Source: Brachybacterium sp.
GTDB taxonomy: Bacteria > Actinomycetota > Actinomycetes > Actinomycetales > Dermabacteraceae
Length of the DNA: 64,000 nucleotides
Direction of reading: 5' to 3'
Assembly: GCF_036379615.1 (NCBI RefSeq)
Contig: NZ_DASVGJ010000060.1
Span: 105,310-169,309, forward strand
The position numbers were made by a program, and so were the translations under genes. The first letter of the stretch is position 1, and each line of letters begins with the position of its first letter. The notes under the pieces were generated by a model that was not told the DNA's origin, did not search any database, and worked only from the letters and a program-made list of their open reading frames with translations. This document shows, piece by piece, positions 4,352 to 21,434 of the stretch.

Positions 4352-4421
4352 CCGCCGGGCACTCGATGTTCCGGGCCGCACCCGCGGTTCGCCGTCTCAC
4401 AACGCAGTGAAGGACAGCGAC

Positions 4422-5756: not shown

Positions 5757-5792
5757 GCGCCGGAGCGCGACGATGGCGAAGGAAGGTGACGC

Positions 5793-6662
5793 ATGAGGCG
5801 TCGGGAGTACGCAGTGCTCGTCGCACCCAGCATGATCGTAATGTTCGGCCTCCTGGCCCTCCCGCTGCTGCGCACGCTCCAATGGAGCTTCCAGCGCGTG
5901 GACTACGGGCAGCCGGGCACCTGGGTCGGGCTGACGAACTACACCTCCGCGCTGGGGGATCCCCGGTTCCTCCGGGCGATCGGTTTCACGATCGGGCTCA
6001 CGGCGGCCACGTTCGTGGTGGTGGTGCTGATCGCATACGTGCTGGCGGTGCTGGTGAATCAGCTCGGTCGGATCCGTCCGCTGGTGCTGGGAACGCTGCT
6101 GGTGAGCTACGTGGTCCCCCAGGTGATCGGGGCGACGATGTTCGGATGGCTGTTCAACCCCAGCTTCGGCGGGGTCGCGAACCATCTGCTCACGCTGGTG
6201 ACCGGCGAGGACGTCCTATGGCTCACCGAGGCCTGGCCCAACCGTCTGCTGCTGCTCCTGTCCGTGGCCTGGGGCCTGATCCCTTTCGCGATGCTCGTCA
6301 TACTCGCAGGTCTGCAAGGAGTCCCAGAGGAGATGCTCGAGGCCGCGGAGCTCGACGGCGTCTCCACCCTCCAGCTCCATCTGAAAGTCATCGTCCCGAC
6401 CATCCGGGGCGTGCTCGGCTTCGTCTCGCTGATCCTGATCATGGATGTGCTGCGAGTCTTCGATCAGCTCATTCCCCTGTCCCCGCAGGCGGTCCAGATC
6501 GGGAACGAGTCCGCGATGCTTTACATCTACAACATCGCCTTCCGCGACGGCGGCCAGCAGCTGGGGCTGGGCAGCGCCGTCAACATCCTCCTGATCGTCG
6601 TCATCTTCATCCTCCTGCTCCCGTTCCTGCGCGGAACGGCGAAGGAAGGGGCCCGCGCATGA
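5793..6662 (+). CDS. Sugar ABC transporter permease (MalF-like)
   Basis: Multiple TM segments; EAA loop LQGVPEEMLEAAELDG. Confidence 0.93.
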   Translation: MRRREYAVLVAPSMIVMFGLLALPLLRTLQWSFQRVDYGQPGTWVGLTNYTSALGDPRFLRAIGFTIGLTAATFVVVVLIAYVLAVLVNQLGRIRPLVLGTLLVSYVVPQVIGATMFGWLFNPSFGGVANHLLTLVTGEDVLWLTEAWPNRLLLLLSVAWGLIPFAMLVILAGLQGVPEEMLEAAELDGVSTLQLHLKVIVPTIRGVLGFVSLILIMDVLRVFDQLIPLSPQAVQIGNESAMLYIYNIAFRDGGQQLGLGSAVNILLIVVIFILLLPFLRGTAKEGARA

Positions 6663-7543
6663 GCTCGACCCGTCCCGCGAGGCAGAGGAACGCGGCCTCA
6701 GGGCGCCGACGGCGCGCAGGCGGCGCAGGAGGAGTGAAGCGCCTGCTGATCGGCATGTTCCTGCTGCTGTTCTGCCTGATGATGCTGTCCCCGGTGCTGT
6801 GGACGCTGGCGTCGGTCACCAAGCCGACCAACGTCGCCTTCCTGAACCCACCCGTCTTCACCTGGATTCCCACCCTGCAGGCGTTCGTCGACCTGTGGCA
6901 GACGACGAACTTCTACCTCGACCTCCTCAACACCGTCATCGTGGCGGTCGCCTCGACGATCGCCGCGCTGGTGCTCGGGATCCCGGCGGCGTACGCGCTC
7001 TCGCGCTTCCCCGGCTGGATCTCCGCCCTGCTCCTGGTGGTCGCCCTGATCTTCCGCGCGCTGCCGCGGTTCTCGATCCTGCTGCCGATGTATGACCTCG
7101 CACAGCAGCTGGGCATCTACGACACCCGCTTCGCGGTGGGGGCGGCGCTGGTCGCGATCAACCAGCCGTTCTCCATCTGGCTGCTGCGCAACTTCTTCGC
7201 CGAGATCCCGAGCTCCCTCGACGAGGCGGCGATGATCGACGGATGCAGTCGCTTCCAGACCCTGCTGCGCGTGATGATCCCGCTCATGGGGCCGGGGATC
7301 CTCACCGCCGGGATCTTTATGTTCCTGTTCGCGTTCCAGGAGTACCTCACGGCCGTCATCCTCAGCAACGTCGACGCCCGGACCGTCCCGGTGTTCATCG
7401 CGACTCAGCTGGGCCAGACTCTGCCCATGCTCCAGCAGGCGGGGGCGGCGTCGGTGCTGCTCACGCTGCCCGTGATCGCCTTCGCACTGATCGCGCAGAA
7501 GTACATGGTCGCCGGCCTCAACGCCGGATCGGTGAAGGGATGA
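6659..7543 (+). CDS. Sugar ABC transporter permease (MalG-like)
   Basis: ATG 6659 overlaps the previous stop (ATGA); EAA loop FFAEIPSSLDEAAMIDG. Confidence 0.93.
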   Translation: MSSTRPARQRNAASGRRRRAGGAGGVKRLLIGMFLLLFCLMMLSPVLWTLASVTKPTNVAFLNPPVFTWIPTLQAFVDLWQTTNFYLDLLNTVIVAVASTIAALVLGIPAAYALSRFPGWISALLLVVALIFRALPRFSILLPMYDLAQQLGIYDTRFAVGAALVAINQPFSIWLLRNFFAEIPSSLDEAAMIDGCSRFQTLLRVMIPLMGPGILTAGIFMFLFAFQEYLTAVILSNVDARTVPVFIATQLGQTLPMLQQAGAASVLLTLPVIAFALIAQKYMVAGLNAGSVKG

Positions 7544-7568: not shown

Positions 7569-8261
7569 GTGACCGCGGAGATCCCCGTCGTCCTCCTGCC
7601 GGGGATGAACTGCACCCCACGGCTCTGGGCGCCCGTCCTGCCCGCGCTGCGGGGGCGCACCGTCCACCACGGCGAGCTCCTCGGTGCCTCGCTCGAGCAG
7701 TGCGTGGAGAACCTGCTGGCCGTGCTCCCGGAGCGCTTCGCCCTGGCGGGGCTGAGCCTCGGAGGGATCGTCGCCATGGCGCTGCTGCGCACGGCGCCGG
7801 AGCGCGTCGACAGGCTCTGCCTGCTGGACACGAACGCTCGCGCGCCCGAACCCGTGCAGCTCGCGGCCTTCGCGCGTCAGCGCCGGAGGCTGGCGACCGG
7901 CGCCAGCGCTCAGGAGGTGCAGAGGGAGCTGCTGGACGTGCTCGTCCATCCTCGGCATCTGTCCCGGCTCGGGCGCGAGGTGGTCCGGATGGGGGAGGAG
8001 ACCGGCGTCGACAGCCTCGCCCAGCAGTACGCGATCCAGGGCACGCGCCGGGACGAGCGCGATCATCTGCCCGGCATCGGGGTTCCGGTCTCCGTCGTTG
8101 CGGGCCGGGACGATGCGCTCTGTCCGCCGGAGCGGCACGAGGAGATCACGGCCCTGGTGCCCGACGCCACCCTCCGGCTCATCCCGCGCACCGGGCACCT
8201 GTCCCCCCTGGAGAGCCCGACCGAGGTCGCGAAGTCGCTGGTGGCCTGGTTGGAGCGCTGA
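7569..8261 (+). CDS. Alpha/beta-fold hydrolase
   Basis: LLPGMNC, GLSLGG nucleophile elbow, GRDD, GHLSPLE; RBS GGGGAGG. Confidence 0.9.
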   Translation: MTAEIPVVLLPGMNCTPRLWAPVLPALRGRTVHHGELLGASLEQCVENLLAVLPERFALAGLSLGGIVAMALLRTAPERVDRLCLLDTNARAPEPVQLAAFARQRRRLATGASAQEVQRELLDVLVHPRHLSRLGREVVRMGEETGVDSLAQQYAIQGTRRDERDHLPGIGVPVSVVAGRDDALCPPERHEEITALVPDATLRLIPRTGHLSPLESPTEVAKSLVAWLER

Positions 8262-8296: not shown

Positions 8297-9034
8297 TCAG
8301 CGATCTGACCTGGCCAGTCGGGAGAAGCTCGCCATCATGTGTGCTGCGAGGTTGTGGACGATCAGGCGGCAGCCCTGGGCAGAGGCAGCGTCAGCGCCGC
8401 CGAGGGTGGAGACGATGTCGGTCCGGACCGCGCCGGCCTCCCGACCGGCCCGATGCACCGCGTCCGTCAGCTGCGCGAGCGTACGGGTCTCCGCCTCGTC
8501 GTGGGCCAGGGCGAAGGCGAGGTCCCCGGGCCCGATCATGTACCCGTCGACCCCGGGGGTGGCGAGGATCGCCGGAGCGGCGTCCACGGCGGCGGGGGAC
8601 TCGAGCATCACCAGCAGGAGATGGTCCTCGGCGGCGGCGGCGTGCTCCTCGGCCGAACGGGTGCCGAACCGCCCGGCGCGCGTGTAGGTGGCGATGCCCC
8701 TCTCGCCCTGCGGGGGATAACGGGCCCAGCGCACCGCCTCCGCCGCGCCGGCCGGGTCGTCGATGTGCGGGACCACCGCACCGGCGGCGCCGAGGTCGAG
8801 AGCGCGCTGGATGACGTGGGGGTCGCGCTCACCGGGCCGGACCAGCACCGGCAGGCCGTGCACCTGTGCCAGGGCGAGGTGGTGCTTGAGCGCCGTGGCG
8901 TCGTGCGGGCCGTGCTCGAGGTCCAGCACCAGGAAGTCCAGGCCGGCCACCGCGAGCATCTCCACGGTGTCCTCCGCGGGCATCCTCAGCAGTGCTCCGT
9001 GCAGCGAGGAGGAGATGCTCACCAGCTCCCTCAT
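8297..9034 (-). CDS. HpcH/HpaI-family aldolase
   Basis: DFLVLDLEHG, ALDLGAAGAVVPHI, RYPPQGERG, MLES, IGPGDL; ATG at 9034 coupled to the SDR stop. Confidence 0.9.
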   Translation of the reverse strand: MRELVSISSSLHGALLRMPAEDTVEMLAVAGLDFLVLDLEHGPHDATALKHHLALAQVHGLPVLVRPGERDPHVIQRALDLGAAGAVVPHIDDPAGAAEAVRWARYPPQGERGIATYTRAGRFGTRSAEEHAAAAEDHLLLVMLESPAAVDAAPAILATPGVDGYMIGPGDLAFALAHDEAETRTLAQLTDAVHRAGREAGAVRTDIVSTLGGADAASAQGCRLIVHNLAAHMMASFSRLARSDR

Positions 9035-9825
9035 GCGACCATCCCCGCGGAGAGGTCCACGTCCGCCCCCGTCATCCCAGGCATGCCGAGGATCGAGTGC
9101 ACCGCGCCGGCGACCTCCTCCGGGGTGACCATGCGCCCCAGAGCGGCACGCCCGACGAAGGCCTGACGGGCCTCCTCCGGCGTGATGCCGCGGCGTCTCG
9201 CCTCGGCCCGGTAGTTGTGCTCCATGCGCTCGCTCTCCACGGGGCCGGGGGACAGTGCGTTCACGCGCACACCCCCGCGCCCCGCCTCGAAGGCGAGCGT
9301 GGAGGTCAGGCCCAGCACGGCCATCTTGGAGGCGCAGTACGGGGTGCGACCCTCGAGAGGGCGCTTGCCGGAGACGGAGGCCAGGTTGATGATGTCGCCC
9401 GCGCCGCGGCGCATCATCCCGGGGAGCAGGGCACGGCACATGAGGAACGTGCCCCGCACGTTGACGGCGAAGACCTCGTCCCACTCCTCCGGATCGATGT
9501 CGACGAGATCTGCGACGGGGCCGCCGATCCCGGCGTTGTTGACGAGGATCGAGACGTCCTCGTCCCTGAGCCGCTCGGCAAGCGCTGTGACGTCCTCCGG
9601 GGAGGAGACGTCGCAGGGGGCGGGGAGCACGGCGCCGGGGTGCACGGCGGCGAGCTCTTCGAGCGGTGCCGGCCGACGGCCGACGGCGATCACGCGAGCG
9701 CCCGAGCGCACCAGGCGCGCGGCGATCGCCCGTCCCAGCCCGGTGCCGGCGCCGGTCACCACGGCCGTCCGGTCGGCGAGGTCCTCGGTGCCTGCGTGCT
9801 CGCCCGAATCCGTGCCTGTGACCAT
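9031..9825 (-). CDS. Short-chain dehydrogenase/reductase (SDR)
   Basis: TGAGTGLG Rossmann motif, NNAG, NLAS, YCASK catalytic YxxxK. Confidence 0.95.
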   Translation of the reverse strand: MVTGTDSGEHAGTEDLADRTAVVTGAGTGLGRAIAARLVRSGARVIAVGRRPAPLEELAAVHPGAVLPAPCDVSSPEDVTALAERLRDEDVSILVNNAGIGGPVADLVDIDPEEWDEVFAVNVRGTFLMCRALLPGMMRRGAGDIINLASVSGKRPLEGRTPYCASKMAVLGLTSTLAFEAGRGGVRVNALSPGPVESERMEHNYRAEARRRGITPEEARQAFVGRAALGRMVTPEEVAGAVHSILGMPGMTGADVDLSAGMVA

Positions 9826-9828: not shown

Positions 9829-11148
9829 TCAGCCCTCGGCCTTCGCCGCGGTGATCCAGTCGACGGGGTCTCCGCCGTGCAGGTGGGCGCGCAGGTCCCC
9901 GGAGCGTGCATGGCCCTCGAACCGCTCGACGCGCGCGGCGCGCCCGCACAGCCGTCCGAGCTCGGCGCTGGTCCGCGGAGAGGTGACCTCCTGGTACGTG
10001 ACCGTCTTGAGGTACTTCCCGACCCACAGGCCGCCGGTGTAGCGGGCGGCGCCGCGGGTGGGCAGCACATGGTTGGTGCCGATGACCTTGTCCCCGTAGG
10101 AGACGCACGTGTTCTCACCGAGGAACAGCGCACCGTAGTCGTGCAGGCGCTCCAGTGCCTGTCGCGGCTCGGCGGTCATGACCTGGACGTGCTCGGCGGC
10201 GTTCTGGTCCGCGAGATGCCACAGCTCGTCCATGTCCTCGGCGATCTCGATGCGCCCGTGGTCGCGCCAGGCCGGGCCGGCCATGTCGCGGGTGGGCATG
10301 TCCACCAGGAGCCGCTCGACGATCTCGAGCACCTCTGCGGCCTGGGCCTCGTCCGTGGTGATCAGGACGGCAGGGGAGTCGGGGCCATGCTCTGCCTGGG
10401 AGAGGAGGTCGACGGCGATGGTGAACGGGTCCGCCGTGCCGTCGGCGAGGATGAGCACCTCTGTCGGGCCGGCGAAGAGGTCGATGCCCACCTCGCCGAA
10501 CAGGAGGCGCTTCGCCTCGGCGACGAAGGCGTTCCCGGGGCCCGCCAGCAGATTCACCGGCGCGATGGTCTCGGTGCCCACGGCGAGGGCGGCCACCGCC
10601 TGCACGCCGCCCAGGACGTAGATCTCGTCGGCACCGGCGCTGCGCATGGCGGCGATCGTCGCCGCCGGGATCTCGCCCATGATCGGAGGGGTCGCCGCAG
10701 CCACCCGCTCGACGCCGGCGACCTTCGCGGTCACGATCGTCATGTGCGCGGAGGCGGTGAGCGGATAACGACCTCCCGGGACGTAGGAGCCGGCGCTCCG
10801 GATCGGAACGTGCGTGTGTCCGAGGAGCACCCCGGGCTGGGTCTCGATCTCGAGGTCCGTGAGCGTCCCGCGCTGCGCCTGCGCGAACTGCCTGACGGAG
10901 GCCTGCACAGTGCCGATGTCCTCGAGCGTCTGCGCGCTCAGCGGCGCGATGATCCGCTCGATTTCCTCGTCCCCCAGGCGGAACGAGTCGGGGGACCACG
11001 AATCGAACCGCTCCGAGTACCGGCGGACCGCCTCGTCTCCGTTGCTGCGGATGTCCTCGATGATCTCCTGGACGCGACCGGAGAGCTCGCGGGCCTCCGT
11101 GCGGCCGCTCCCACCCTCACCCGTGGCGGCCTTGAGCACCTTCACCAT
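9829..11148 (-). CDS. Histidinol-dehydrogenase-family dehydrogenase 2 (HpsN-like)
   Basis: YVPGGRYP, GPGNAFV, AGPTE, DLLSQAEHG, AEHV, YGDKVIGTNHVLPT, EGH; RBS AAGGAGG. Confidence 0.92.
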   Translation of the reverse strand: MVKVLKAATGEGGSGRTEARELSGRVQEIIEDIRSNGDEAVRRYSERFDSWSPDSFRLGDEEIERIIAPLSAQTLEDIGTVQASVRQFAQAQRGTLTDLEIETQPGVLLGHTHVPIRSAGSYVPGGRYPLTASAHMTIVTAKVAGVERVAAATPPIMGEIPAATIAAMRSAGADEIYVLGGVQAVAALAVGTETIAPVNLLAGPGNAFVAEAKRLLFGEVGIDLFAGPTEVLILADGTADPFTIAVDLLSQAEHGPDSPAVLITTDEAQAAEVLEIVERLLVDMPTRDMAGPAWRDHGRIEIAEDMDELWHLADQNAAEHVQVMTAEPRQALERLHDYGALFLGENTCVSYGDKVIGTNHVLPTRGAARYTGGLWVGKYLKTVTYQEVTSPRTSAELGRLCGRAARVERFEGHARSGDLRAHLHGGDPVDWITAAKAEG

Positions 11149-11179: not shown

Positions 11180-11257
11180 TGAAGTGCGGCAAGTGTGCCC
11201 GAGGTAGGCTCGGGGCGTCAAGGGGGCGGAGGCCTCTCGTTGCGAGGAGCAGGGGTG

Positions 11258-12271
11258 ATGATGGTCAGCAGCAAGGATGTCGCGCGCCTCGCAGGGGTCT
11301 CCCAGCCCACCGTCTCCCGGGCCCTGCGCGGAGACCCTCGCCTGACCGAGGCCACGAAGCAGAAGGTGCGCAGCGCGGCCGAGCAGCTCGGGTACTCGCC
11401 CAACGCCTTCGGTCGCGCCCTGGCGACCGGGCGCTCCACGCGCGTGGGCCTGCTCGTCACGGATCTCGACAACCACTTCTTCATCAACGTCCTCGCGGCG
11501 ATCCATGACGAGCTGGGTGGGAGTGGCCACGAGATGATCCTGCTGACGGAGTCCTCCGGGGCGGACGGGATCGAGGCGCGGGTCTCCTCCTTGGGGCTCG
11601 GTGGCGTCATCCTGGCGACCACGACGACCGCCTCGCTGCTGCCGATCCGGCTCGCGGACCGATCGATCCCGTTCGTCTACTTCAACCGCGTCTCGGAGCT
11701 GGTGGCCGCGGATTCTGTGCAGGTGGATCCCGAGGTCGGCCTCGGCGAGCTCGCGGCCGCCCTGGCGGAGCTCGGGCACGAGCAGGTCGGGGCGGTGCTC
11801 GGCCCCAGCAACACGAGCACGGGCGTGGCCCGGGAGTTCGCGCTGCGGCGGGCGCTCGCCGCTCATGGCCTGACGCTCCGCGATGAGAGCACCCGTCGCG
11901 GCGACTTCTCCGTGGAGTGCGGGAACCTCCTCGCCGGGGAGCTGCTCGACGCAGAGCGGCGCCCGTCGGTGATCGTCTGCGGGAACGACGACGTCGCCCT
12001 GGGGGCCCTGAACGCCGCGGCGGCCCGGGGTCTGAGGGTGCCCGAGGACGTGTCCGTGGTGGGCTTCGATGATCTGCCGACGGCGAGCTGGCCGATCGTG
12101 CAGCTGACGACCGTCCGCTACGACCTCGAGGGGATGGCCCGGGCGGCGGCTCGGGCGATGGTGCGACGGATGGAGAGTGTGCCGGGCGCCGAGGTTGAGC
12201 TCGAAGCCGTCGTGCTTCCCAGCTCGCTGGTGCGCCGACGCAGCCTCGGCGTCGCGCCCACCCGTTCCTGA
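11258..12271 (+). CDS. LacI-family transcriptional regulator
   Basis: SSKDVARLAGVSQPTVSRAL HTH, LGYSPN hinge, CGNDDVALG, SVVGFDD; start 11258 or 11261. Confidence 0.95.
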   Translation: MMVSSKDVARLAGVSQPTVSRALRGDPRLTEATKQKVRSAAEQLGYSPNAFGRALATGRSTRVGLLVTDLDNHFFINVLAAIHDELGGSGHEMILLTESSGADGIEARVSSLGLGGVILATTTTASLLPIRLADRSIPFVYFNRVSELVAADSVQVDPEVGLGELAAALAELGHEQVGAVLGPSNTSTGVAREFALRRALAAHGLTLRDESTRRGDFSVECGNLLAGELLDAERRPSVIVCGNDDVALGALNAAAARGLRVPEDVSVVGFDDLPTASWPIVQLTTVRYDLEGMARAAARAMVRRMESVPGAEVELEAVVLPSSLVRRRSLGVAPTRS

Positions 12272-12378: not shown

Positions 12379-12407
12379 TTGACGAACCGTGTGCATACGC
12401 ATACCCT
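12379..12407 (+). promoter_or_regulatory. Sigma-A-type promoter overlapped by LacI operator site 3
   Basis: TTGACG (12379-12384), 17 bp, TACCCT (12402-12407); operator TGCATACGCATACC at 12392-12405; 12390-12404 is the exact reverse complement of 3021-3035. Confidence 0.7.
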
Positions 12408-12445: not shown

Positions 12446-13447
12446 GTGAGTCTGGACCCGATTGCATATCAGCCGTACAGCGATCCCGATGAGTTCATCC
12501 GCGAGGTGACCGACCGGATCTGGGTCGGTCGGGACATCGACCACATCATTGAGAACTACGAAGAGGATTCGATCGTCCACGGGAGCCTGGGGACGACCGT
12601 CGGCCGCCAGGGCGTCATCGACGGCACCACGATGAGGATCGCGACCGTCCCGCAGCACGTCGGGGTCGCCGAGGACGTCATCTGGGAGCAGAGGGGAGAG
12701 GACGCCTTCCTCAGCTCGCACCTGGTCTTCTCCAGTGACGAGCACATCGTCGACGGTCGCCTGCGCCGGGTGCGCTCCCGCACCGTCGCCAACTGCCTCT
12801 ATCGGCGGGGGCGGATGGTGGAGGAGTGGGTGGTCCGCGACTCGCTCGCGGACTGCCTCCAGCGGGGGATCCCTCCGGAGGAGGCCGCTGCGGAGATGCG
12901 ATTCGTCGGCCACGAGGGCTCCTGGACGCAGCAGTCGCCCGCGGACCCGCTGCGCAGCGGCGAGAGCGGACCGCGGCCCAGCACCGCGAACGCCAGCTGC
13001 GCGATGGTGCTGGACATGATCGAGGAGGTGTGGAACAAGCGGCGCCTAGATCAGGTCCACGAGTACATGGTCCGGGACCTCTTCCTCCACACCGTCGGCG
13101 ACTCCACCGTCCTGCGCCCCGAGGGATATCAGAAGGACCTGCTCTCGCTCATCGCCCCGTTCACCGACTGCCGGTTCTCGGTGCGGGACGTCCAGGCCCA
13201 CGACCATCCGGACTACGCGGGCCTGCGGGTCGCCGTGCTCTGGCAGATGACGGGCGTCTACGCCGGCGTCCCCTCGTTCGGCCCGCTCACGAACGCGCCG
13301 GTCGATCTGATGGGCGTCTCCCAGTTCCTTATCCAGAACGGACGGATCGTTCGAGAGATCCGGGTCTATGACGAGATCGCCCTGCGCGCGCAGATCGCCG
13401 TCCACCAGGACGAGAACTCCTCGATGATCGGCACCAACATCTACTGA
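12446..13447 (+). CDS. Tandem SnoaL/NTF2-like (ester cyclase-like) domain protein
   Basis: Two repeated units (..DRIWVGRDIDHIIENY.. and ..EEVWNKRRLDQVHEY..) each ending in MVEEWVVRD / IVREIRVYDE strands; RBS GAGGAGG. Confidence 0.75.
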   Translation: MSLDPIAYQPYSDPDEFIREVTDRIWVGRDIDHIIENYEEDSIVHGSLGTTVGRQGVIDGTTMRIATVPQHVGVAEDVIWEQRGEDAFLSSHLVFSSDEHIVDGRLRRVRSRTVANCLYRRGRMVEEWVVRDSLADCLQRGIPPEEAAAEMRFVGHEGSWTQQSPADPLRSGESGPRPSTANASCAMVLDMIEEVWNKRRLDQVHEYMVRDLFLHTVGDSTVLRPEGYQKDLLSLIAPFTDCRFSVRDVQAHDHPDYAGLRVAVLWQMTGVYAGVPSFGPLTNAPVDLMGVSQFLIQNGRIVREIRVYDEIALRAQIAVHQDENSSMIGTNIY

Positions 13448-13549
13448 CGCCCCACCGGCAGGCCTCCGCCGGCACGCCGCCGGTGGCCCATCGGCCGCAG
13501 CGCCGCACCCCCGCATCCGCACCTCGACACCCGCCACAGGAGCAACGCC

Positions 13550-14698
13550 ATGACCACGACCGCCCCCTCCGGCACCGACGCCGCGAGCCGCACCATCCTC
13601 CGCACCGACTGGGTCCCCTGCAAGACGGCCTTCATCGACACCAGGACGCCGGGCTCGGACCAGAAGGACAACTACTCCTTCATCGGCCCCGGGGTCAGCC
13701 AGAACTCCGACCAGTTCGTGAACATCGCCGAACCCCACGGCTTCAACATGGGCGCCGCCGGCATGCCGCACGGTCTCGTCAACAGCCTTCACCTGCACTT
13801 CACCGCCGAGGTGTTCATCAACTTCGACGGCGACTACCTGCTGCGCTGGGGAGCCGAGGGGGAGCAGGGGACGTACCGGTCCCTGGACGGCGACATCATC
13901 TCGGTGCCGCCGTGGGTCTTCCGCGGCTTCACCAACGAGGGCTCCGGCGACGGCGTCCTGCTCACCGTCCTCGGCCAGGACCGCACCGGAGGCATCATCT
14001 GGGGGCCCAAGGTCATCGAGGAGGCAGGGAAGCACGGCCTGTACCTGTCCTCGGACAACCAGCTCGTGGACACGACACAGGGTGACTCGCTTGAGGGGGT
14101 CGAGCTCATCGAGCCGATGCCGCAGGCGGAGATCGATCGGCTCGACGTCGTGACCGAGGAGCAGTTCGCGACGCGGGTCACCAGGCCGCAGGACCGTGTC
14201 TGGCAGGAGCGGCCGTTCCTCTGCTCGGTGCTGCCGGGCGGTCGTGCCGAGCTGTCCCTCATCATCGGGTACGGCCTCACCGAGCAGGTCCGTGACGTCC
14301 CGCGCCTGCACGATCCGCACTCCTTCACCGTGGCGTGGCTGCGGGCGGCGCAGGGGGAGGGCATGCTCGAGCACACGATCGACCGTCACCAGGTGCTGGT
14401 TGCACGGACCGGGAGCTGGGAGGTCGCCTTCGAGACAGAGGAGGGCCTGCAGACTGTGGAGCTGAACCGGCTCGACGCGGTCTCGATCCCCCCGGGCGCG
14501 CGTCGTTCCCTGAAGGCCCTGGCGGCGGGCGAGGACGGCACCTCTGAGATCCTCGTCGTCGTCGAGGGCGACGGCCGAGCGCATCAGCGGTGGAGCGATG
14601 AGGTGGTCGCCGCGGCGCAGGATGCCGGTTGGGTGCTCGATCCCAACGGTTACGTCGCGCCCTCGGCGCTGCTCGCGAACTCGCCGACCCCGCGCTGA
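13550..14698 (+). CDS. Uncharacterised bicupin-like protein
   Basis: SLHLHFTAEVF (HxH..E cupin motif 1), GDIISVPPWVFRGFTN (motif 2 variant), second degenerate cupin DAVSIPPGARRSL; RBS AGGAG. Confidence 0.65.
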   Translation: MTTTAPSGTDAASRTILRTDWVPCKTAFIDTRTPGSDQKDNYSFIGPGVSQNSDQFVNIAEPHGFNMGAAGMPHGLVNSLHLHFTAEVFINFDGDYLLRWGAEGEQGTYRSLDGDIISVPPWVFRGFTNEGSGDGVLLTVLGQDRTGGIIWGPKVIEEAGKHGLYLSSDNQLVDTTQGDSLEGVELIEPMPQAEIDRLDVVTEEQFATRVTRPQDRVWQERPFLCSVLPGGRAELSLIIGYGLTEQVRDVPRLHDPHSFTVAWLRAAQGEGMLEHTIDRHQVLVARTGSWEVAFETEEGLQTVELNRLDAVSIPPGARRSLKALAAGEDGTSEILVVVEGDGRAHQRWSDEVVAAAQDAGWVLDPNGYVAPSALLANSPTPR

Positions 14699-14705: not shown

Positions 14706-15548
14706 GTGGACGGTGACCCCGTGCTGCGCGCGGCGGCCTGCCAGCTGCGCATCGACATCGACGCGCCGACACCGTTGGAGGAGATCGAACGGACCGTCGC
14801 GGACGCGGCCGGCGCCGGAGCGCGGCTGATCGTCCTCCCCGAGCTCGCACTGAGCGGATACGTGTTCCGCTCGGGTGACGAGCTGGAGGAGCTCGCGGAG
14901 CGGCCCGACGGACGCACCGCGGCGTTCGCTGCGCGGGTCAGCGCCGAGCACGGCTGCGTCCTCGTCGCGGGGTTCCCGGAGCGGGACGGCGCCCACGTGT
15001 GCAACAGCGCCGTGATCGCCGATCGGGGCGAGGTGCGCGGGATCTACCGGAAGGTGCATCTCTGGGACGAGGAGAAGCTCCTCTTCACGCCCGGGGACGG
15101 GCCGCCCCTGGTGGTGGACACGAGCCTCGGGCGGGTGGGCGTGATGATCTGCTACGACGCGGAGTTCCCCGAATGGGTGCGACGCGCGGCCCAGGATCGG
15201 GTCGACGTCCTCGCCGTGCCGGTCAACTGGCCGCTGATGCCCAGACCGGACGGCCAGGTCGCGGTGGAGGTCGCCAAGATCAGGGCGGCGGCCGCCGCCT
15301 ACCGGGTGCCGATGGTCGTCGCCGACCGCTGCGGCCGCGAGCGCGGCACCGACTGGGTGGGCGGGAGCCTGGTCGCCGACGCCGGCGGATACCTGCTGGC
15401 GGGTCCCGCGACCACTGACGGGACGGCGGCGGCGGCGACGGTCATCGCCGACATCGATCTGCGCGACGGGCGGTGCAAGGCCCTCACGCGGCAGGCGCAC
15501 GTCTGGGGCGACCGGCGGCCGGCGCTCTATGGGGACGACGACCGGTGA
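14706..15548 (+). CDS. Nitrilase-superfamily carbon-nitrogen hydrolase
   Basis: Triad motifs VLPEL (Glu), YRKVHL (Lys), MICYD (Cys); GTG start at 14706 inferred. Confidence 0.9.
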   Translation: MDGDPVLRAAACQLRIDIDAPTPLEEIERTVADAAGAGARLIVLPELALSGYVFRSGDELEELAERPDGRTAAFAARVSAEHGCVLVAGFPERDGAHVCNSAVIADRGEVRGIYRKVHLWDEEKLLFTPGDGPPLVVDTSLGRVGVMICYDAEFPEWVRRAAQDRVDVLAVPVNWPLMPRPDGQVAVEVAKIRAAAAAYRVPMVVADRCGRERGTDWVGGSLVADAGGYLLAGPATTDGTAAAATVIADIDLRDGRCKALTRQAHVWGDRRPALYGDDDR

Positions 15549-15741
15549 CCCGACGACGTCGCGGGAGGACGGGCTCAGCGGGGCGACCTCCGCGGCGGGG
15601 CGTGCTCGCCGGTCGCTGACGATCGGCCGGGAAACCTCCGGCAAGAGCAGGCGCCCTCCCTCCTCCGCGGACATCATGGCTGGTGAAACCCGTCGAGGAG
15701 GCCGCGTGCCGACTCCTCGACGCCTTGAGGAGGAGGAGCGA

Positions 15742-16815
15742 ATGAGGTCGAGGACGACCCCGAGACCACCAGGCCCACGACTCGGACGGCGCACGCTGCT
15801 GACGGGGATCCCGCTGCTCGGCGCCGGAGCGCTCGCGATGGCGGGCTGTGCACCGTCGGACGCCGGCGCGGCCACCGACGTCGAGAACATCCTGACGGTC
15901 TCCCTGAACCAGACCGAGACCCACCCCAGCTATCTCGCGCTGACCTACTTCGGCGAGCAGCTCGCCGAGGCGACGGGCGGCCGCTGGGGCGCCCGCATCT
16001 ACGCCAATGAGGCGCTCGGCGCCCAGCAGGAGGTCGTCCAGCTCGTCTCCGACGGCAGCGTCGACATGGCGATCATCTCCGCTCCGCAGGTCGAGAACCT
16101 CTCGATGGCGTTCCGCCCGCTGAACCTGCCCGGCGCCTTCGTGGACATCGAGCACCAGACCGCCGTGCTGCAGGACGAGTCGATCGTGGGGGAGCTGTTC
16201 TCCTCCCTCGAGGACGAGCGGCGCCTGCGCGTGCTCGGCGGATTCACCCAGGGGTCCCGCCACGTCTACACCGACCGCGGCCCGATCGAGAGCCCCGAGG
16301 ACCTCGCCGGGCTGAAGGTCCGCGTCCAGGAGTCCGACGTGTTCATGGCGCTGACCCGCGCGCTCGGCGCGTCACCCACCCCGATGGCCTACGGCGAGGT
16401 GTACACCGCGCTGCAGGCCGGGGTGCTCAACGGCGCCGAGAACAACGAGGTCAGCTACGTGACCCAGCGCCACTACGAGATCGCTCCGCACTTCACCCTC
16501 ACCAACCACCTGGTGGGGCTCGACTACGTGATGGCGAACGTGGACCGGATCGGGGAGATGGACGGCGCGGACCAGGAGGCCTTCTCTCAGTGCTTCACCG
16601 CCGCGCAGGAGGAGTTCGTGCGCCTGTGGGCGCAGGAGACCGAGTCCAGCACGCAGGCGATGCTCGATGCGGGGGTCGAGATCACCGAACCCGATCCTGA
16701 GGCGTTCACCCCGGCGATCGAGGAGGTGGGGCGCTCCTTCCTGGGCAGCCCTGAGGACGAGGACCTGTACGAGCGCGTGCGCGCGCTCGCTGAGGACATG
16801 GGGGTTCAGCGATGA
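15742..16815 (+). CDS. dctP: TRAP transporter substrate-binding protein (DctP family)
   Basis: Tat/lipoprotein signal (GRRTLL...AGC), GLKVRVQ with conserved Arg, PMAYGEVYTALQAGVLNGAENN; RBS GAGGAGG. Confidence 0.92.
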   Translation: MRSRTTPRPPGPRLGRRTLLTGIPLLGAGALAMAGCAPSDAGAATDVENILTVSLNQTETHPSYLALTYFGEQLAEATGGRWGARIYANEALGAQQEVVQLVSDGSVDMAIISAPQVENLSMAFRPLNLPGAFVDIEHQTAVLQDESIVGELFSSLEDERRLRVLGGFTQGSRHVYTDRGPIESPEDLAGLKVRVQESDVFMALTRALGASPTPMAYGEVYTALQAGVLNGAENNEVSYVTQRHYEIAPHFTLTNHLVGLDYVMANVDRIGEMDGADQEAFSQCFTAAQEEFVRLWAQETESSTQAMLDAGVEITEPDPEAFTPAIEEVGRSFLGSPEDEDLYERVRALAEDMGVQR

Positions 16816-17387
16816 GCGCGCCGCGCAGAAGGATCGTCCAGGGCCTGACCTGGATCAGCATCGCGCTGTTCGTGGTGCTCGTGCTGGTGGTGATGTGGCA
16901 GGTGTTCACCCGCCAAGTGCTGCAGGCCCCGAGCGCCTGGACCACCACCGTCTCCCAGTACCTGTTCATCTGGCTGGTGCTCTTCGCGGTCGCGATGGTG
17001 TTCGGAGAGCGGGGCCATGTGGCGGTGGACTTCCTCGCCCGCCTGCTGCCGCGGCCCGCGCAGCGCGGCACGGCGATGCTCGTCGAGGTCGCGATCCTCG
17101 CCTTCGCCCTCCTGGGCCTGGTCTGGGGAGGGATCCGAGGCATGTCGATCTCCTTCGACCAGGCGATCCCGGGCCTGCCGGTCACGGTCGGGCAGATGTA
17201 CCTGGCCCTGCCGGTAGCGGGCGTGCTCATCGCCCTGTTCGCGCTCGAGGACCTCGTGCGCGCCGCGCGCGGCGAGGACATGCTCGGCGGCGACGACGCC
17301 CAGGCCGAGGCGGCGCTCGAGGCCGCCGGTGCGGACACGACCGACGGCACCTCCCCGACCGGCCCGACCACGCAGAAGGGAGCCTGA
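16812..17387 (+). CDS. dctQ: TRAP transporter small permease
   Basis: 4 TM; QVFTR, WL, HVAVDF motif. Confidence 0.92.
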   Translation: MSAPRRRIVQGLTWISIALFVVLVLVVMWQVFTRQVLQAPSAWTTTVSQYLFIWLVLFAVAMVFGERGHVAVDFLARLLPRPAQRGTAMLVEVAILAFALLGLVWGGIRGMSISFDQAIPGLPVTVGQMYLALPVAGVLIALFALEDLVRAARGEDMLGGDDAQAEAALEAAGADTTDGTSPTGPTTQKGA

Positions 17388-17390
17388 GCC

Positions 17391-18710
17391 GTGGACCCCG
17401 CAACTCTCGCAGGCATCATCCTCATCTCCGGCGTCGTCGTGCTCATCGGCATCGGCGCCCCGATCGCCGTCGCGATCGGCCTGCCCTCGATCGTGGCGCT
17501 CGCCGCGGTGGTAGGCACCGAGCAGGCGGTGTTCGTCGCCTCCCAGCGCATGTTCACGGGGGCGAGCTCCTTCACGCTGCTGGCGATCCCGTTCTTCGTG
17601 CTCGCCGGTTCGCTGATGAACACCGGCGGCATCGCCGAGCGCCTCATCGACGCCGCCAAGGTGCTCGTGGGCCGGATGCCCGGCTCCCTCGCCCAGACGA
17701 ACGTCGTGGGCAACGCCCTGTTCAGCTCCGTCTCCGGGGCGGCCGTGGCCTCGGCCGCGGCGATGGGCTCCACCCTCGGCCCCCGCATGCGCAAGGAGGG
17801 CTACGACCCGGCGTTCTCCGCCGCCGTCAACGCCGCCTCCGCGCCGGCGGGCATGATGATCCCGCCGTCGAACACCCTGATCGTGTACTCACTGGTTTCC
17901 TCGACCTCGGTGGCGACGCTGTTCATGGCGGGCTACGGTCCCGGCATCGTCTGGGTGCTCGCCTGCCTGATCGTCGTCGCGCTCATCGCCCGGCGCCGGC
18001 CCGACATGTTGACGCGCGGCGAGCGCATCCCGCTGGGCCTCGCGCTGCGGACCCTGCTCAAGGCGGTGCCCGCGATCTTCATGATCGTGGTCGTGGTCGG
18101 CGGCCTGCTGGCCGGCTTCTTCACCGCGACCGAGTCCGCGGTGATCGCCGTCGCGTACTCCTTCGTGCTGGGGCTCGTCTACCGGCAGCTCACGCTGAAG
18201 AACCTGCCCTCGGTGGTCGCGGGCGCCGCCCGCACGACCGCGGTCGTGATGCTGCTGGTGGCCGTCTCCTCGGCGCTGAGCTGGGTGCTGTCCTACGCGA
18301 TGATCCCGCAGTCGATCTCCACGGCGCTGCTGGGGCTCGCGGACTCCACGACGGTCATCCTGCTGCTGATGATGCTGATCCTGCTGGCCGTGGGCGCCTT
18401 CATGGACCCCACCCCGGCGATCCTCATCTTCACGCCGATCTTCCTGCCGATCGCCCTCGAGCTCGGGGTGGATCCGATCCACTTCGGCATGATGATCACC
18501 TTCAACCTGTCGCTGGGCACGATCACCCCGCCCGTGGGGAACATCCTGTTCATCAGCGCGAAGGTGGGCGGGGTGCAGGTCGAGCCCGTCATCAAGGCGA
18601 TGCTGCCGTTCTTCCTCGCCCTGTTCATCGGCCTGGTGCTGGTGGTGTTCATCCCGCAGATCTCGATGTTCCTGCCCGATCTGCTGGGCATGACCGGCGA
18701 GGCGGGCTGA
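17391..18710 (+). CDS. dctM: TRAP transporter large permease
   Basis: LLAIPFFVLAG, SGAAVASAAAMG, IPPS, TPPVG motifs. Confidence 0.95.
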   Translation: MDPATLAGIILISGVVVLIGIGAPIAVAIGLPSIVALAAVVGTEQAVFVASQRMFTGASSFTLLAIPFFVLAGSLMNTGGIAERLIDAAKVLVGRMPGSLAQTNVVGNALFSSVSGAAVASAAAMGSTLGPRMRKEGYDPAFSAAVNAASAPAGMMIPPSNTLIVYSLVSSTSVATLFMAGYGPGIVWVLACLIVVALIARRRPDMLTRGERIPLGLALRTLLKAVPAIFMIVVVVGGLLAGFFTATESAVIAVAYSFVLGLVYRQLTLKNLPSVVAGAARTTAVVMLLVAVSSALSWVLSYAMIPQSISTALLGLADSTTVILLLMMLILLAVGAFMDPTPAILIFTPIFLPIALELGVDPIHFGMMITFNLSLGTITPPVGNILFISAKVGGVQVEPVIKAMLPFFLALFIGLVLVVFIPQISMFLPDLLGMTGEAG

Positions 18711-18820: not shown

Positions 18821-19651
18821 TCAGACGAAGGGGTTCCAGAACCGCCCGCCGTTGACCACCAGCAGCATGAGCGGGATCACCACCAGCACCACGGCGACCG
18901 CGATCAGCACCAGGTCCCGGGCCCGCAGCGACGTGCTGACCAGCCAGGTGCGCCGCCTCCCACGCCCGAAGCCACGCAGCTCCATCGCGGCCGAGACCGA
19001 CTCGATGCGGTCGAAGGTTCCCAGCAGCAGCGGCATCAGCACCGAGGCGAGGTTCCGCACCCGGGTGGAGAGACCGACGCCGCGGCTGGTGTCGAGGCCG
19101 CGCGCCTGCTGCGCCTGGGAGATCGTGCGGAACTCCCGCTGCAGGTCGGGGATGTACCGCAGCGCGAGCGACACGGCGTACGCGATCCGATAGGGCACGC
19201 CGATCCGCGCCAGGGAGGAGGCGAACTCCGGGGGGCGGGTGGTGGCCACGAAGAGGAGCACCGCCGGCAGCACTGCGACGTACTTCAGGGTGACCGCGAG
19301 CTGGTAGAACAGCTGCTCGGCGGTCACATCCCACTGCCAGGGGCCATCGAGCAGCAGGTGCCGGGTGCCGAACAGCTCCGTGCCGTAGCCGGGGGCGAAC
19401 AGGAAGATCCCGATGTTGTTCAGCACCATGAACACCAGGATCAGCCACAGCACCACGGCAAGATCCCGCGGGCGCACCCGCGAGAACCCCCACAGCACGA
19501 GCGAGCCCAGCGACACCGCGGCGAGGTAGCGCACGTCGAAGCCGATCATCGCGCCGAGCACCACCCCGAGGGCGAGCATCAGCTTGGAGACGCCGGCGAG
19601 GGAGTGCAGGGGGCCCGGGCGGTCGATGTAGCCGAGGACGGGAGCGGTCAT
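18821..19651 (-). CDS. ECF transporter transmembrane (T) component
   Basis: ALRYIP, AQQARG and AMELRGF coupling motifs. Confidence 0.92.
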   Translation of the reverse strand: MTAPVLGYIDRPGPLHSLAGVSKLMLALGVVLGAMIGFDVRYLAAVSLGSLVLWGFSRVRPRDLAVVLWLILVFMVLNNIGIFLFAPGYGTELFGTRHLLLDGPWQWDVTAEQLFYQLAVTLKYVAVLPAVLLFVATTRPPEFASSLARIGVPYRIAYAVSLALRYIPDLQREFRTISQAQQARGLDTSRGVGLSTRVRNLASVLMPLLLGTFDRIESVSAAMELRGFGRGRRRTWLVSTSLRARDLVLIAVAVVLVVIPLMLLVVNGGRFWNPFV

Positions 19652-21432
19652 GGCGCCACCTCGCGCGCGGCCCGGTCCACCGCGACGAAGCGGCGGACGA
19701 GCCGGTGGGGTTCCGTGATGCCGCAGCGCCTGGCGAGGTCGTAGAGTCCCGTCGTCACCAGGTCGGCGCGTCGGGTGAGCTCCGGATCGGTGAGCACCAC
19801 GGCCGGATCGTCGTCGGCCAGCAGGTCCCCGCCGGAGAGGACCAGCACCCGATCGGTGTATTCGAGGGCGAGGTGCATGTCGTGGGTGATCAGCACGACG
19901 GTGGTGCCGGCGTCGTTGACCCGGCGCAGGAACTCCATGAACTCGGTGTAGTGGGCGTGGTCCTGCCCGGCCGTGGGCTCGTCCAGGAGCAGCACCTCCG
20001 GCTCCAGGGCGAGGATCGCGGCGATGCTGACGCGCTTCTTCTGGCCGTGGCTGAGCGCCGAGAGCGGCCAGGTGCGGAACGGACGCAGCCCGCAGACCTC
20101 GAGCACGGCGGTCGTGCGCCGTGCGATCTCCTCCGCGTCGAGACCGCGGGTGCGCATCCCGAGCGCGATCTCGTCGGCCACCCGGGGCTGGGAGATCGAC
20201 TGCCCGGGCTCCTGCAGCACGAAGCCCACCCGACGGCCGCGCTCGGCGAGGCTCCAGGAGGCGGCATCGGCCCCTCCGATCAGCACCTGACCGTCGGTCG
20301 TCCTCTCGAACCCGCAGATCACACGGGCGAGGGTCGACTTCCCGGCGCCGTTGGAGCCGAGCACCCCGATCATCTCGCCTCGCGCGATGCGGGCGTCGAC
20401 ACGGGACAGGGCGAGGGTGCTGCGTCCGGGGCCGACGGAGATCTCGCTGCGGACGCCGCGGAGCTCGAGCGCCGCCTCCGCAGCGTCCGGGCCCGCTTCT
20501 GCAGCATCCGTCCCCGCCGCCTCGGGCGCGTCGTCGACCGCCGCGTCCAGGACCCAGGCACGGACGGCGGCGATCTGCTGCGGGGTGAGGTGGATGTCGC
20601 TGCTGCGGGAGGGGCGCTGGCCGGCATGGGCCGGGACCCCGGCGTGGCGCAGGGCCGCGACGTGCAGCGGCGGGCGGATGCCGTGCTGCTCGAGCAGGCC
20701 GGAGGCGATGACCTCGTCCGGGGAGGCGTCGGCGATGATGCGTCCGCGGTCCATGAGCACGATGCGGTCCACGTCCCGGTGCAGGACGTCCTCGAGGCGG
20801 TGCTCGACGATCAGCACAGTGGTGCCGTGGTCCCGGTGCAGTGCGTCCACGAGCTCGACGGCGGCGCGACCGGTTGCCGGGTCGAGGTTCGCCAGCGGCT
20901 CGTCCAGCAGCAGCACCTCGACCTCGTCGACCAGCACGCCCGCGATCGCGACGCGCTGCTTCTGCCCGCCCGAGAGATCGTGCGGGGAGGACTCCAGACG
21001 GTCCTCGATGCCGGCGAGTCGTGCGGCGCTCTCGATCCGGGCGGGCATCTCCTCCCGGGGGACCTGCCGGTTCTCGAGGCTGAAGGCGATGTCCTCGACC
21101 ACCGAGAGGCCCACGAACTGGCTGCTGCTGTCCTGCAGCACCGTGCCGACCACGCCCGAGGTCTCCACCAGCGGGATGCGAGCGGGGTCCTTCCCCTGCA
21201 CGCGCACGGTGCCCGTGGCGGTGCCGCGGTGATGGTGCGGGATCAGTCCGTTCAGGGCGCGCAGCAGCGTGGACTTCCCGGAGCCGGAGGCGCCGACGAC
21301 GGCGACCTTCTCCCCGCGCCGCACCACCAGGTCGATGTCGTGCAGGGTCGGGGCGGACTGCGCCCGGTACTGGAACGAGTACGCGGACAGCTCGATCAGC
21401 GGTTCCCCGGCAGGGCCGCGAGCATCCGGCAT
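19648..21432 (-). CDS. ECF transporter double-NBD ATPase
   Basis: Two Walker A (GASGSGKST, GSNGAGKST), LSGGQ and LSHGQ signatures, two LLLDEP; alternative start GTG 21438. Confidence 0.93.
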   Translation of the reverse strand: MPDARGPAGEPLIELSAYSFQYRAQSAPTLHDIDLVVRRGEKVAVVGASGSGKSTLLRALNGLIPHHHRGTATGTVRVQGKDPARIPLVETSGVVGTVLQDSSSQFVGLSVVEDIAFSLENRQVPREEMPARIESAARLAGIEDRLESSPHDLSGGQKQRVAIAGVLVDEVEVLLLDEPLANLDPATGRAAVELVDALHRDHGTTVLIVEHRLEDVLHRDVDRIVLMDRGRIIADASPDEVIASGLLEQHGIRPPLHVAALRHAGVPAHAGQRPSRSSDIHLTPQQIAAVRAWVLDAAVDDAPEAAGTDAAEAGPDAAEAALELRGVRSEISVGPGRSTLALSRVDARIARGEMIGVLGSNGAGKSTLARVICGFERTTDGQVLIGGADAASWSLAERGRRVGFVLQEPGQSISQPRVADEIALGMRTRGLDAEEIARRTTAVLEVCGLRPFRTWPLSALSHGQKKRVSIAAILALEPEVLLLDEPTAGQDHAHYTEFMEFLRRVNDAGTTVVLITHDMHLALEYTDRVLVLSGGDLLADDDPAVVLTDPELTRRADLVTTGLYDLARRCGITEPHRLVRRFVAVDRAAREVAP

Positions 21433-21434
21433 CG

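Follow-up and report, generated by a model that had tools for sequence, protein, structure and literature searches.

Two-barrel cupins (bicupins) such as YxaG and oxalate decarboxylase (OxdC) hold a metal site of three His and one Glu in both barrels, and in OxdC an Arg beside the metal polarises the carboxylate. Enzymes with the NTF2 alpha+beta cone fold, among them Lsd19, MonBI-MonBII, SnoaL, AknH, IdmH and SnoaL2, perform acid/base chemistry without cofactors in polyketide or polyether biosynthesis. In the lower pathway of protocatechuate-4,5, gallate and 3-O-methylgallate degradation, oxygenolytic ring opening is followed by ester or lactone hydrolysis, catalyzed by a 2-pyrone-4,6-dicarboxylate (PDC) or methyl-ester hydrolase, and by cleavage to pyruvate and a C4 keto acid by a class II aldolase of the LigK type specific for 4-carboxy-4-hydroxy-2-oxoadipate (CHA). 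L-Threonate and D-erythronate are reportedly degraded via a DUF1537 kinase, the genes of the route being OtnK, OtnC and OtnI. The present report concerns two adjacent genes of Brachybacterium sp. located in a window of 64,000 nucleotides (~71% G+C; contig NZ_DASVGJ010000060.1, positions 105,310 to 169,309), one encoding a tandem SnoaL/NTF2-like protein of 333 aa (12446-13447, forward strand), recognized by Pfam, fold and synteny, and the other a bicupin of 382 aa (13550-14698, forward strand), recognized by motifs, homologue alignment, a structural model and structure search. Both proteins are new variants inside known superfamilies and belong to a widespread pathway. The best explanation of the results is that both proteins act in the cytoplasm as enzymes of a catabolic cluster that is repressed by LacI, has spread horizontally and serves the breakdown of a compound that is polar, oxygen-rich and partly nitrogen-bearing.

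The bicupin gene starts with ATG at 13550 and is preceded by its own ribosome-binding site (AGGAGC). A scan of G+C at the third codon position (GC3) picked out this frame and that of the SnoaL protein as coding (GC3 0.91-0.92), and each gene is present in a single copy in this genome. Motif 1 of the N-terminal barrel is canonical (G75-x5-H81-x-H83-x3-E87-x6-G94), and motif 2 reads G114-x5-P120-x-W122-x2-R125-x3-N129 with Trp in the Gly position and, in all homologues aligned, Arg in place of the metal-binding His. The original prediction had recognized HLH...E in motif 1 and Arg (VFRGFTN) where motif 2 normally supplies His, a description that proved exact; the strings SLHLHFTAEVF, VFRGFTN and ARRSL were all found in the sequence. 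The codons of the putative metal and substrate site lie within 13790-13924 on the forward strand (H81, 13790-92; H83, 13796-98; E87, 13808-10; R125, 13922-24), and the four residues are invariant in 35 homologues with identity as low as 26%. D30, F28 and several glycines are likewise kept. In the C-terminal barrel H275 is kept, I277 and Q281 replace the second His and the Glu of motif 1, and R319 aligns with R125. The further claim that the second cupin half ends in RRSL stands as regards the sequence and is refined in that this barrel lacks the metal triad. Since the most distant homologues carry HxH..E plus Arg in both barrels, the C-terminal site has decayed in the present lineage, and the C-terminal barrel is probably a degenerate structural or substrate-lid domain.

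The match of the bicupin to Pfam Cupin_2 (PF07883) was below the gathering threshold (22.9 bits versus 27.2), although most homologues carry a precomputed PF07883 match. A phmmer search against all Protein Data Bank (PDB) sequences returned nothing at E up to 1, NCBIfam holds no family for either protein, and a protein atlas lookup returned only cupin clusters without names. The database names of the two proteins are 'hypothetical', 'ester cyclase' and 'cupin', and no characterized relative of either was found in PDB, Pfam or NCBIfam, in agreement with the earlier description of both as unannotated members of a catabolic cluster. A site to which motif 1 contributes two His and one Glu, and in which Arg takes the fourth-ligand position, was matched by no characterized cupin in the searches made.

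The model of the bicupin built with 35 homologues (predicted local distance difference test, pLDDT, 94.2; predicted template modelling score, pTM, 0.92) was identified as a two-barrel cupin by two independent aligners. VIA returned Z 22.3 to YxaG and 21.7 to OxdC, and Foldseek returned E ~1e-15 with probability 1.00. More than 20 different bicupins matched at Z 17-22 over residues ~5-357. The list of matches is flat (Z 22 to 16) and contains quercetinases, oxalate decarboxylase, seed globulins, salicylate and gentisate dioxygenases, DUF861/ureidoglycine aminohydrolase, IolB-like proteins, BacB, MPnS/HEPD, pirins, KduI and others. The cupin isomerases IolB, KduI and mannose-6-P isomerase (Z 15-19) fall below the dioxygenase and decarboxylase entries yet inside the flat list, and they gave no sequence match. 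ARD and Dke1 are not among the 50 matches listed with the whole two-barrel model as query, a list dominated by bicupins. The bicupin shares with YxaG (2h0v, 1y3t) and OxdC (5hi0, 1j58) the two-barrel architecture and canonical motif 1 (HxHxxxE) but is only 10-15% identical to them, has Arg for the motif-2 His, has lost the second site and is encoded in a different genomic context. The protein does not fall within the quercetinases, oxalate decarboxylases or gentisate dioxygenases, given the site of H, H, E plus Arg, the lack of a PDB sequence match and a structural identity of 8-15%.

The SnoaL gene starts with GTG at 12446 and has its own Shine-Dalgarno sequence, GAGGAGGAG, before the start. 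Pfam SnoaL (PF07366) matched the protein at 64.4 bits, above the cut-off of 28.4, in two stretches of which the C-terminal one (residues 187-317) spans the complete model. The layout is an N domain (~residues 1-145), a linker and a C domain (~residues 180-320). An AlphaFold model based on 26 homologues (pLDDT 70, pTM 0.76) revealed two alpha+beta cone domains, consistent with the two NTF2-like units of the original prediction, and the fold search that it had recommended upheld the cupin and the NTF2 folds alike. Single-domain SnoaL-like structures (3f9s, IdmH 6hnn, KstA15, AclR, SnoaL2 8r2b, AknH 2f98 and SnoaL 1sjw) aligned in Foldseek to one domain with target-normalized TM 0.75-0.82. The tandem Lsd19 and MonBI-MonBII aligned to both halves with root mean square deviations of 13-17 Å and TM 0.31-0.40, the inter-domain geometry of the model being only moderately confident (pLDDT 70). 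Pairwise comparison of the halves revealed no sequence similarity (E 2.5). Thus, the two units are supported by profile and fold, and either the duplication is old or the protein arose by fusion. A PDB sequence search returned nothing useful for the SnoaL protein, and profile hits to solved SnoaL-like proteins were marginal (E 0.007-0.6), too weak to place the catalytic Asp/His set of SnoaL in the sequence.

Mean column identity in the SnoaL family is 80% across sequences 63-87% identical. Arg, Asp, Glu and Trp are frequent among the invariant residues, which also comprise a C-terminal Asn-Ile-Tyr (NIY), a composition that suggests a polar substrate. The protein shares the cone fold with the NTF2 enzymes named above but is only 12-22% identical to them, and differs in domain packing from the tandem structures, in the Arg/Asp/Glu/Trp-rich conserved residues and in the invariant NIY. 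The context differs too: no polyketide synthase (PKS) gene was found in 80 loci, and the partners of the SnoaL gene are catabolic.

The distribution of the bicupin was investigated by scoring 8000 candidates from a collection at 90% identity, which yielded 2262 family members at E up to 0.001; a separate search among 50%-identity clusters yielded 658 representative proteins. In a scan of 185,579 species genomes 409 were found to encode the protein, and in a sample of 401 Actinomycetota genomes 3 did so; within Brachybacterium, an intact gene is present in 2 of 55 species genomes and a broken remnant in one more. This patchy occurrence is the pattern of a mobile accessory trait. A gene fragment with an in-frame TGA in another Brachybacterium genome (G409:C1:3886647-3886997) is probably what remains of a lost cluster.

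Synteny was evaluated in 81 other cupin loci comprised of 80 related loci, nearly all actinobacterial, and one from the Actinomycetota sample. The SnoaL gene is directly upstream of the cupin gene on the same strand in 76 of the 79 loci with upstream room, and a carbon-nitrogen (CN) hydrolase gene directly downstream in 55 of the 73 with downstream room. The eight core genes tested, encoding two HisD paralogues (HisD1 and HisD2), an alpha/beta hydrolase, an HpcH aldolase, a short-chain dehydrogenase (SDR), LacI, SnoaL and the cupin, are all held by 60 of the 81 loci. The conserved cluster consists of 12 genes under LacI-type operators, and clustering of all open reading frames (ORFs) in the loci revealed no further members. 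In a record titled Planococcus sp. APC 4015, labelled a Firmicute, the order and spacing of the cluster are as in Microbacterium loci, so that either the cluster was transferred recently or the contig is a contaminant. Fifteen loci contain within the cluster a standalone MetE-like gene ('cobalamin-independent methionine synthase II family'); the Ruegeria protein is ~60% identical to those of the eight actinobacterial loci compared, mostly Propionibacteriaceae, an unusually high value across phyla.

A tblastn search against annotated plasmids returned 50 records with 34-45% identity to the bicupin, fourteen of which were read. In Vibrio pelagius and Salinivibrio the genes encode DeoR, a tripartite ATP-independent periplasmic (TRAP) transporter, OtnK, an OtnC-type aldolase, OtnI, the bicupin, the HpcH aldolase and the alpha/beta hydrolase. 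In Thioclava a sugar ABC system is followed by the bicupin, HpcH, the hydrolase, OtnK, an aldolase and a TIM-barrel isomerase, and the Ensifer locus encodes a tandem NTF2 protein, HpcH, the hydrolase, OtnK and an aldolase, with LacI and the bicupin alongside. Klebsiella michiganensis and Pantoea have one operon, in slightly different order, for HisD, the SDR, a major facilitator superfamily transporter, the hydrolase, HpcH and the bicupin, to which Pantoea adds a divergent amidase, a HisD and two NTF2 genes. Octadecabacter, Sinorhizobium medicae, Roseibium, Ruegeria and Mesorhizobium have genes for HisD, the SDR, LacI, a shorter bicupin, the hydrolase and an RraA-family protein, the last not annotated in Mesorhizobium; NTF2 and MetE-like genes occur only in some of this group, with up to four NTF2 paralogues in Ruegeria. 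Novosphingobium mirrors the set of the window with two hisD genes, an amidase, HpcH and an SDR.

The constant core is the bicupin, the alpha/beta hydrolase and a class II pyruvate aldolase, encoded contiguously in Vibrio, Salinivibrio, Thioclava, Klebsiella, Pantoea, Roseomonas and Rhizorhabdus. In some Alphaproteobacteria an RraA-family aldolase appears in place of HpcH, in what the sequences identify as a non-orthologous replacement. The RraA family is that of the 4-hydroxy-4-methyl-2-oxoglutarate (HMG) and CHA aldolases. An aldolase position filled by either HpcH or RraA suggests that the enzyme releases pyruvate from a 4-hydroxy-2-oxo acid substituted at C4. Full-length relatives of the tandem SnoaL protein (25-29% identity) are present in some proteobacterial clusters and absent from others, which identifies it as accessory, as are the amidase and the second HisD. 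The original prediction had treated the SnoaL protein and the cupin as a pair; the two are separable outside the Actinobacteria, where the constant partners of the cupin are the hydrolase and the aldolase. For amide hydrolysis the clusters encode the CN hydrolase or else an amidase-signature enzyme, found only in loci without CN hydrolase, an apparent non-orthologous replacement of a presumed amide-hydrolysing step. In six of the synteny loci, all without CN hydrolase, the bicupin start is followed ~3.3 kb downstream by the amidase-signature gene.

The core is joined either to OtnK and OtnC, with or without OtnI, or to an SDR and a HisD of the HisD2 type (51-56% identical to HisD2 in the proteobacterial clusters), never to both in the loci read. 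The OtnK, OtnC and OtnI proteins of Vibrio encoded beside the trio reach NCBIfam equivalog cut-offs. True equivalogs of all three share an operon with the trio in Vibrio, Salinivibrio and Thioclava, as do those of OtnK and OtnC in Ensifer; these four fetched loci, all without HisD2 and SDR, are the only ones with Otn genes. None of the 80 actinobacterial loci contains them, the window likewise has none, and no OtnK was found in the present genome. The clusters also differ from the threonate and erythronate pathway in that the dehydrogenases which usually feed it are absent, no threonate or erythronate dehydrogenase being annotated in the Vibrio, Salinivibrio, Thioclava or Ensifer clusters. A role of the SnoaL protein as substitute for OtnI was considered and not adopted; the pattern derives from four loci only and does not fit the HisD-type clusters.

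These associations suggest a scheme to which we would assign somewhat less than an even chance of being correct as a whole, in which the bicupin, as the signature of the bicupin-hydrolase-aldolase core, would be a 2-His-1-Glu metalloenzyme catalyzing the committing C-C cleavage. The N-terminal barrel would bind Fe(II) or Mn(II) through H81, H83 and E87, leaving open coordination sites for bidentate binding of a chelating enolate or alpha-keto/hydroxy-acid substrate and for O2, with R125 at the usual place of the fourth ligand pairing with an anionic oxygen of the substrate. The cleavage, most likely O2-dependent, would be that of an enolised di-carbonyl ring, and would yield an ester or lactone of a 4-hydroxy-2-oxo acid that the alpha/beta hydrolase could open. 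The aldolase would then cut the resulting acid to pyruvate and a C4 keto acid. If the latter is 3-oxo-tetronate, OtnK and OtnC would convert it to dihydroxyacetone phosphate (DHAP) and CO2. If it is the 2-deoxy form, 4-hydroxy-3-oxobutanoate, reduction by the SDR would give 3,4-dihydroxybutanoate, the counterpart of 2,3-dihydroxypropane-1-sulfonate (DHPS) with a carboxylate for the sulfonate. HpsN-like HisD2 would oxidize this product to malate; DHPS oxidation by HpsN and HpsO is the model for this step. Two forms of the C4 acid would account for the mutual exclusion of Otn genes and the HisD2-SDR pair. In the minimal Vibrio operon, a bicupin, a hydrolase and a pyruvate aldolase would suffice to bring one imported anion into the 3-oxo-tetronate route, and oxygenolytic cleavage followed by hydrolysis and retro-aldol cleavage would lead straight to pyruvate and the C4 keto acid. 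The tandem SnoaL protein is envisaged as an accessory enzyme that uses acid/base chemistry, much as ketosteroid isomerase, scytalone dehydratase or limonene epoxide hydrolase do. It may turn substituted precursors into the core substrate, either by hydrolysing off an N-substituent or by isomerising or dehydrating a cyclic enone, with the amidase and HisD1 possibly working alongside on an amide-bearing amino-alcohol side chain.

The order of reactions proposed, with oxygenolytic ring opening, ester or lactone hydrolysis, a class II aldolase and pyruvate plus a C4 keto acid as products, is that of the gallate-type lower pathway, and RraA-family aldolases fill the aldolase position in some bicupin clusters. 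No enzyme is orthologous, however. The cluster RraA proteins score ~25 bits on LigK models, the hydrolase has the alpha/beta fold whereas LigI belongs to the amidohydrolase superfamily, and bicupin clusters have no aromatic-ring hydroxylases and have transporters of the sugar type. Several substrates were rejected on grounds of carbon count or missing enzymes, namely L-ascorbate, diketogulonate, oxalyl-threonate, C7 aldaric acids, isosaccharinate, pyridoxine, kojic acid, pantothenate, opines, quinate and dehydroquinate. The original prediction had offered ring-opening, isomerase or dehydratase steps and 'new chemistry' for the two proteins; we infer that such roles may apply, and overall the observation is confirmed and the interpretation partly supported.

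A specific substrate class was conceived post hoc for this scheme, which would make the cluster family a bacterial breakdown pathway for the C7-cyclohexenone sunscreens gadusol, 4-deoxygadusol, fungal mycosporines and mycosporine-like amino acids (MAAs). We regard this identification as possible and, on balance, doubtful. Gadusol and the 4-deoxygadusol core of mycosporines both contain the features that the scheme needs, a 2-methoxy-1,3-dicarbonyl ring and a C(OH)(CH2OH) centre. Tandem SnoaL paralogues would hydrolyse the enaminone or imine C-N bonds, and the amidase and HisD1 would handle glutaminol- or serinol-type side chains as carried by fungal mycosporines. The bicupin, as an Fe(II) dioxygenase, would cut the ring next to the methoxy carbon to give an alpha-keto methyl ester from which the alpha/beta hydrolase would free methanol. 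From gadusol the aldolase would produce pyruvate and 3-oxo-tetronate, the latter processed by OtnK and OtnC to DHAP, and from the 4-deoxy core pyruvate and 4-hydroxy-3-oxobutanoate, the latter processed by the SDR and HisD2 to malate. The several amino-acid substituents on MAAs would suit several NTF2 paralogues, as in marine roseobacters. Such a pathway could account for the eight conserved enzyme types, the exclusivity of Otn versus HisD2 and SDR, the roseobacter NTF2 paralogues and the hosts, which include marine Vibrio, roseobacters and saltern, soil-crust and plant-surface bacteria. A literature search returned no paper on the present cluster, on a bicupin with such a site or on mycosporine or gadusol catabolism.

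Several points weigh against the scheme of cleavage, hydrolysis and aldol cleavage. The flat list of structural matches (Z 16-22) mixes isomerases, hydrolases, decarboxylases and dioxygenases, so that the fold does not single out a reaction, and both the facial triad of H81, H83 and E87 and the distance from R125 to the metal are assumed from motif positions. The proteobacterial sample is comprised of 14 plasmid loci only. The SnoaL protein also occurs in one Otn-type cluster, that of Ensifer, without amidase or HisD, which renders its link to removal of N-substituents weak. Finally, the MetE-like gene that recurs in some clusters has no role in the model.

The alternative that survives best is a non-oxidative route for a sugar acid or cyclitol modelled on inositol catabolism, which we consider improbable though by no means negligible. 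The SDR would oxidize a ring or chain hydroxyl, the SnoaL protein would act like scytalone dehydratase, the hydrolase would open a lactone or diketone ring and the aldolase would act last. The non-phosphorylative routes for L-rhamnose and L-fucose use an SDR, a hydrolase and an HpcH aldolase plus a dehydratase; the first three form a standard set that is present here, and the normally required dehydratase is missing. Dehydratases with the NTF2 fold exist. The sugar-type CUT1 ABC importer and the LacI repressor of the cluster are also in favor of this route. On the other hand, the minimal operons of Vibrio, Salinivibrio and Thioclava, which have neither SDR nor SnoaL, still tie the trio to 3-oxo-tetronate genes. 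The minimal Vibrio operon includes no NAD-dependent enzyme, and a non-oxidative route to pyruvate and tetronate in these organisms would therefore need an unusual, indeed exotic, C7 diacid. The recurrent amidase is left unexplained as well. In the same vein, the bicupin itself could be a metal-dependent aldose-ketose or keto-enol isomerase resembling IolB, KduI or mannose-6-P isomerase, or a new acid-sugar dehydratase, a role that we judge unlikely to a similar degree. The structural matches to IolB-like proteins (Z 18.9), KduI (16.3) and mannose-6-P isomerases (~15.7) are consistent with it, but known cupin isomerases hold four protein ligands including the motif-2 His that is Arg here.

A further alternative is catabolism of an organosulfonate or phosphonate related to DHPS, with the HisD proteins as sulfopropanediol dehydrogenases and the Arg-bearing bicupin accepting the sulfonate or phosphonate. 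Among proteins of solved structure, both HisD paralogues are closest to HpsN; they score 348-384 bits to HpsN entries (HisD2, 348-355) versus ~262 to HisD, and in the cluster as in the HpsN/HpsO system a HisD-family four-electron dehydrogenase adjoins an SDR. A TRAP transporter trails the operon, and TRAP transporters occur in roseobacter hps clusters; the bicupins HEPD and MPnS are among the fold matches (Z ~17.6). These likenesses are opposed by the substrate site. The signature G-R-Y-A/S-H of HpsN holds the sulfonate-binding His126 (PMC11382572), and alignment to 8v35 revealed GRFPL in HisD1 and GRYPL in HisD2, with Leu opposite His126; the Asp-Lys pair of the Zn site (Asp352-Lys353) is kept in both paralogues. 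Furthermore, no gene for C-S or C-P cleavage, a desulfonating enzyme or a sulfite exporter was found among the conserved cluster genes, the TRAP genes are not conserved with the cluster, and linkage to tetronate genes and pyruvate aldolases indicates carboxylates. Since His126 is replaced by Leu and conserved desulfonation genes are lacking, a sulfonate substrate is very unlikely and the carboxylate analogue fits better. The original prediction had proposed an anionic substrate, whether carboxylate, sulfonate or phosphate; a carboxylate suits the context of pyruvate aldolase, tetronate genes and, in some relatives, TRAP importers, and the sulfonate is disfavored. Lastly, the notion that the bicupin serves in ligand binding or regulation, not in catalysis, and that the SnoaL protein cyclises polyketide-type compounds in secondary metabolism, for which one could cite the many cupins and NTF2 proteins that serve as binding modules, the names given by Pfam and NCBI ('ester cyclase', 'polyketide cyclase') and the loss of the metal site from the C-terminal barrel, is highly improbable in view of the strict invariance of the complete HxH..E motif and the Arg over 26-100% identity, the position of the bicupin gene between enzymes in an operon, the 80 loci devoid of PKS and nonribosomal peptide synthetase genes and the catabolic nature of all partners (transporters, repressor, dehydrogenases, aldolase).

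The genes of the window are arranged in three operons. The first, on the forward strand, encodes HisD1 and a CUT1-type ABC importer with a binding protein (4407-5756) and two permeases (3023-7543 for HisD1 and importer together; Pfam/NCBIfam), followed by the alpha/beta hydrolase (7569-8261), which has a GLSLG nucleophile elbow and resembles PcaD and BioH. The second, on the reverse strand, encodes the HpcH/HpaI-type class II pyruvate aldolase (8297-9028), the SDR (9031-9825; annotation and synteny) paired with HisD2, and HisD2 itself (9829-11148), an HpsN-like four-electron alcohol dehydrogenase by annotation and alignment. The third, on the forward strand, encodes the LacI-family repressor (11195-12271; Pfam LacI and Peripla_BP_3), present in 77 of 82 loci, the tandem SnoaL protein, the bicupin, the CN hydrolase (14706-15548) and the TRAP transporter DctP/Q/M (15529-18710; Pfam). 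The CN hydrolase, of the nitrilase superfamily (Pfam CN_hydrolase E 2e-41; ICYD Cys motif), likely starts with GTG 8 nt past the cupin stop, and the first TRAP ORF overlaps its stop. Matching of the operator pattern TGYATRCGYATRCA with up to one mismatch located three sites in the window (3020, 11166 and 12392), compared to a chance expectation of 0.01 and none of 100 shuffles that reached three. The 14-bp palindrome is present in one copy in front of each of the three operons; the copy at 12392-12405, TGCATACGCATACC, is a LacI-type operator by pattern match and lies 41 nt upstream of the SnoaL start. A GC-rich inverted repeat at 13449-13487 sits between the SnoaL and bicupin genes. This stem-loop is probably not a functional element, the folding energy being no better than that of shuffles (z -1.4).

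The TRAP transporter is appended to the operon and lies outside the conserved cluster. It was rejected as a pathway member, being absent from all 80 related actinobacterial loci and not orthologous to the TRAP systems beside proteobacterial clusters, to which its binding protein is 26-29% identical; it looks like a lineage-specific gain of a second importer. The region past the TRAP genes is unrelated to the cluster. It includes an ECF-type vitamin importer (18821-21986, reverse strand) with a CbiQ-like T component, a fused double ABC ATPase and a riboflavin-type S component, likewise unrelated, a gene for a SAM hydroxide adenosyltransferase (DUF62, fluorinase-like fold; 22017-22907, reverse strand) and a divergent pair of luciferase-like monooxygenase genes (24099-26016).

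The two proteins define uncharacterized subfamilies within two very large superfamilies. Genes for the bicupin, the hydrolase and the aldolase are invariably found in company, linked to the tetronate route in some clusters and to an HpsN-like dehydrogenase in the others, and this co-travel with two alternative outlets indicates a self-contained, widely distributed carbon-degradation pathway. The operator, the repressor and the binding protein of the importer are direct experimental handles on its substrate. The identity of that substrate would give functions to eight gene families together, and annotations could then be freed of 'ester cyclase', 'polyketide cyclase' and 'histidinol dehydrogenase', misleading names that are now widespread.

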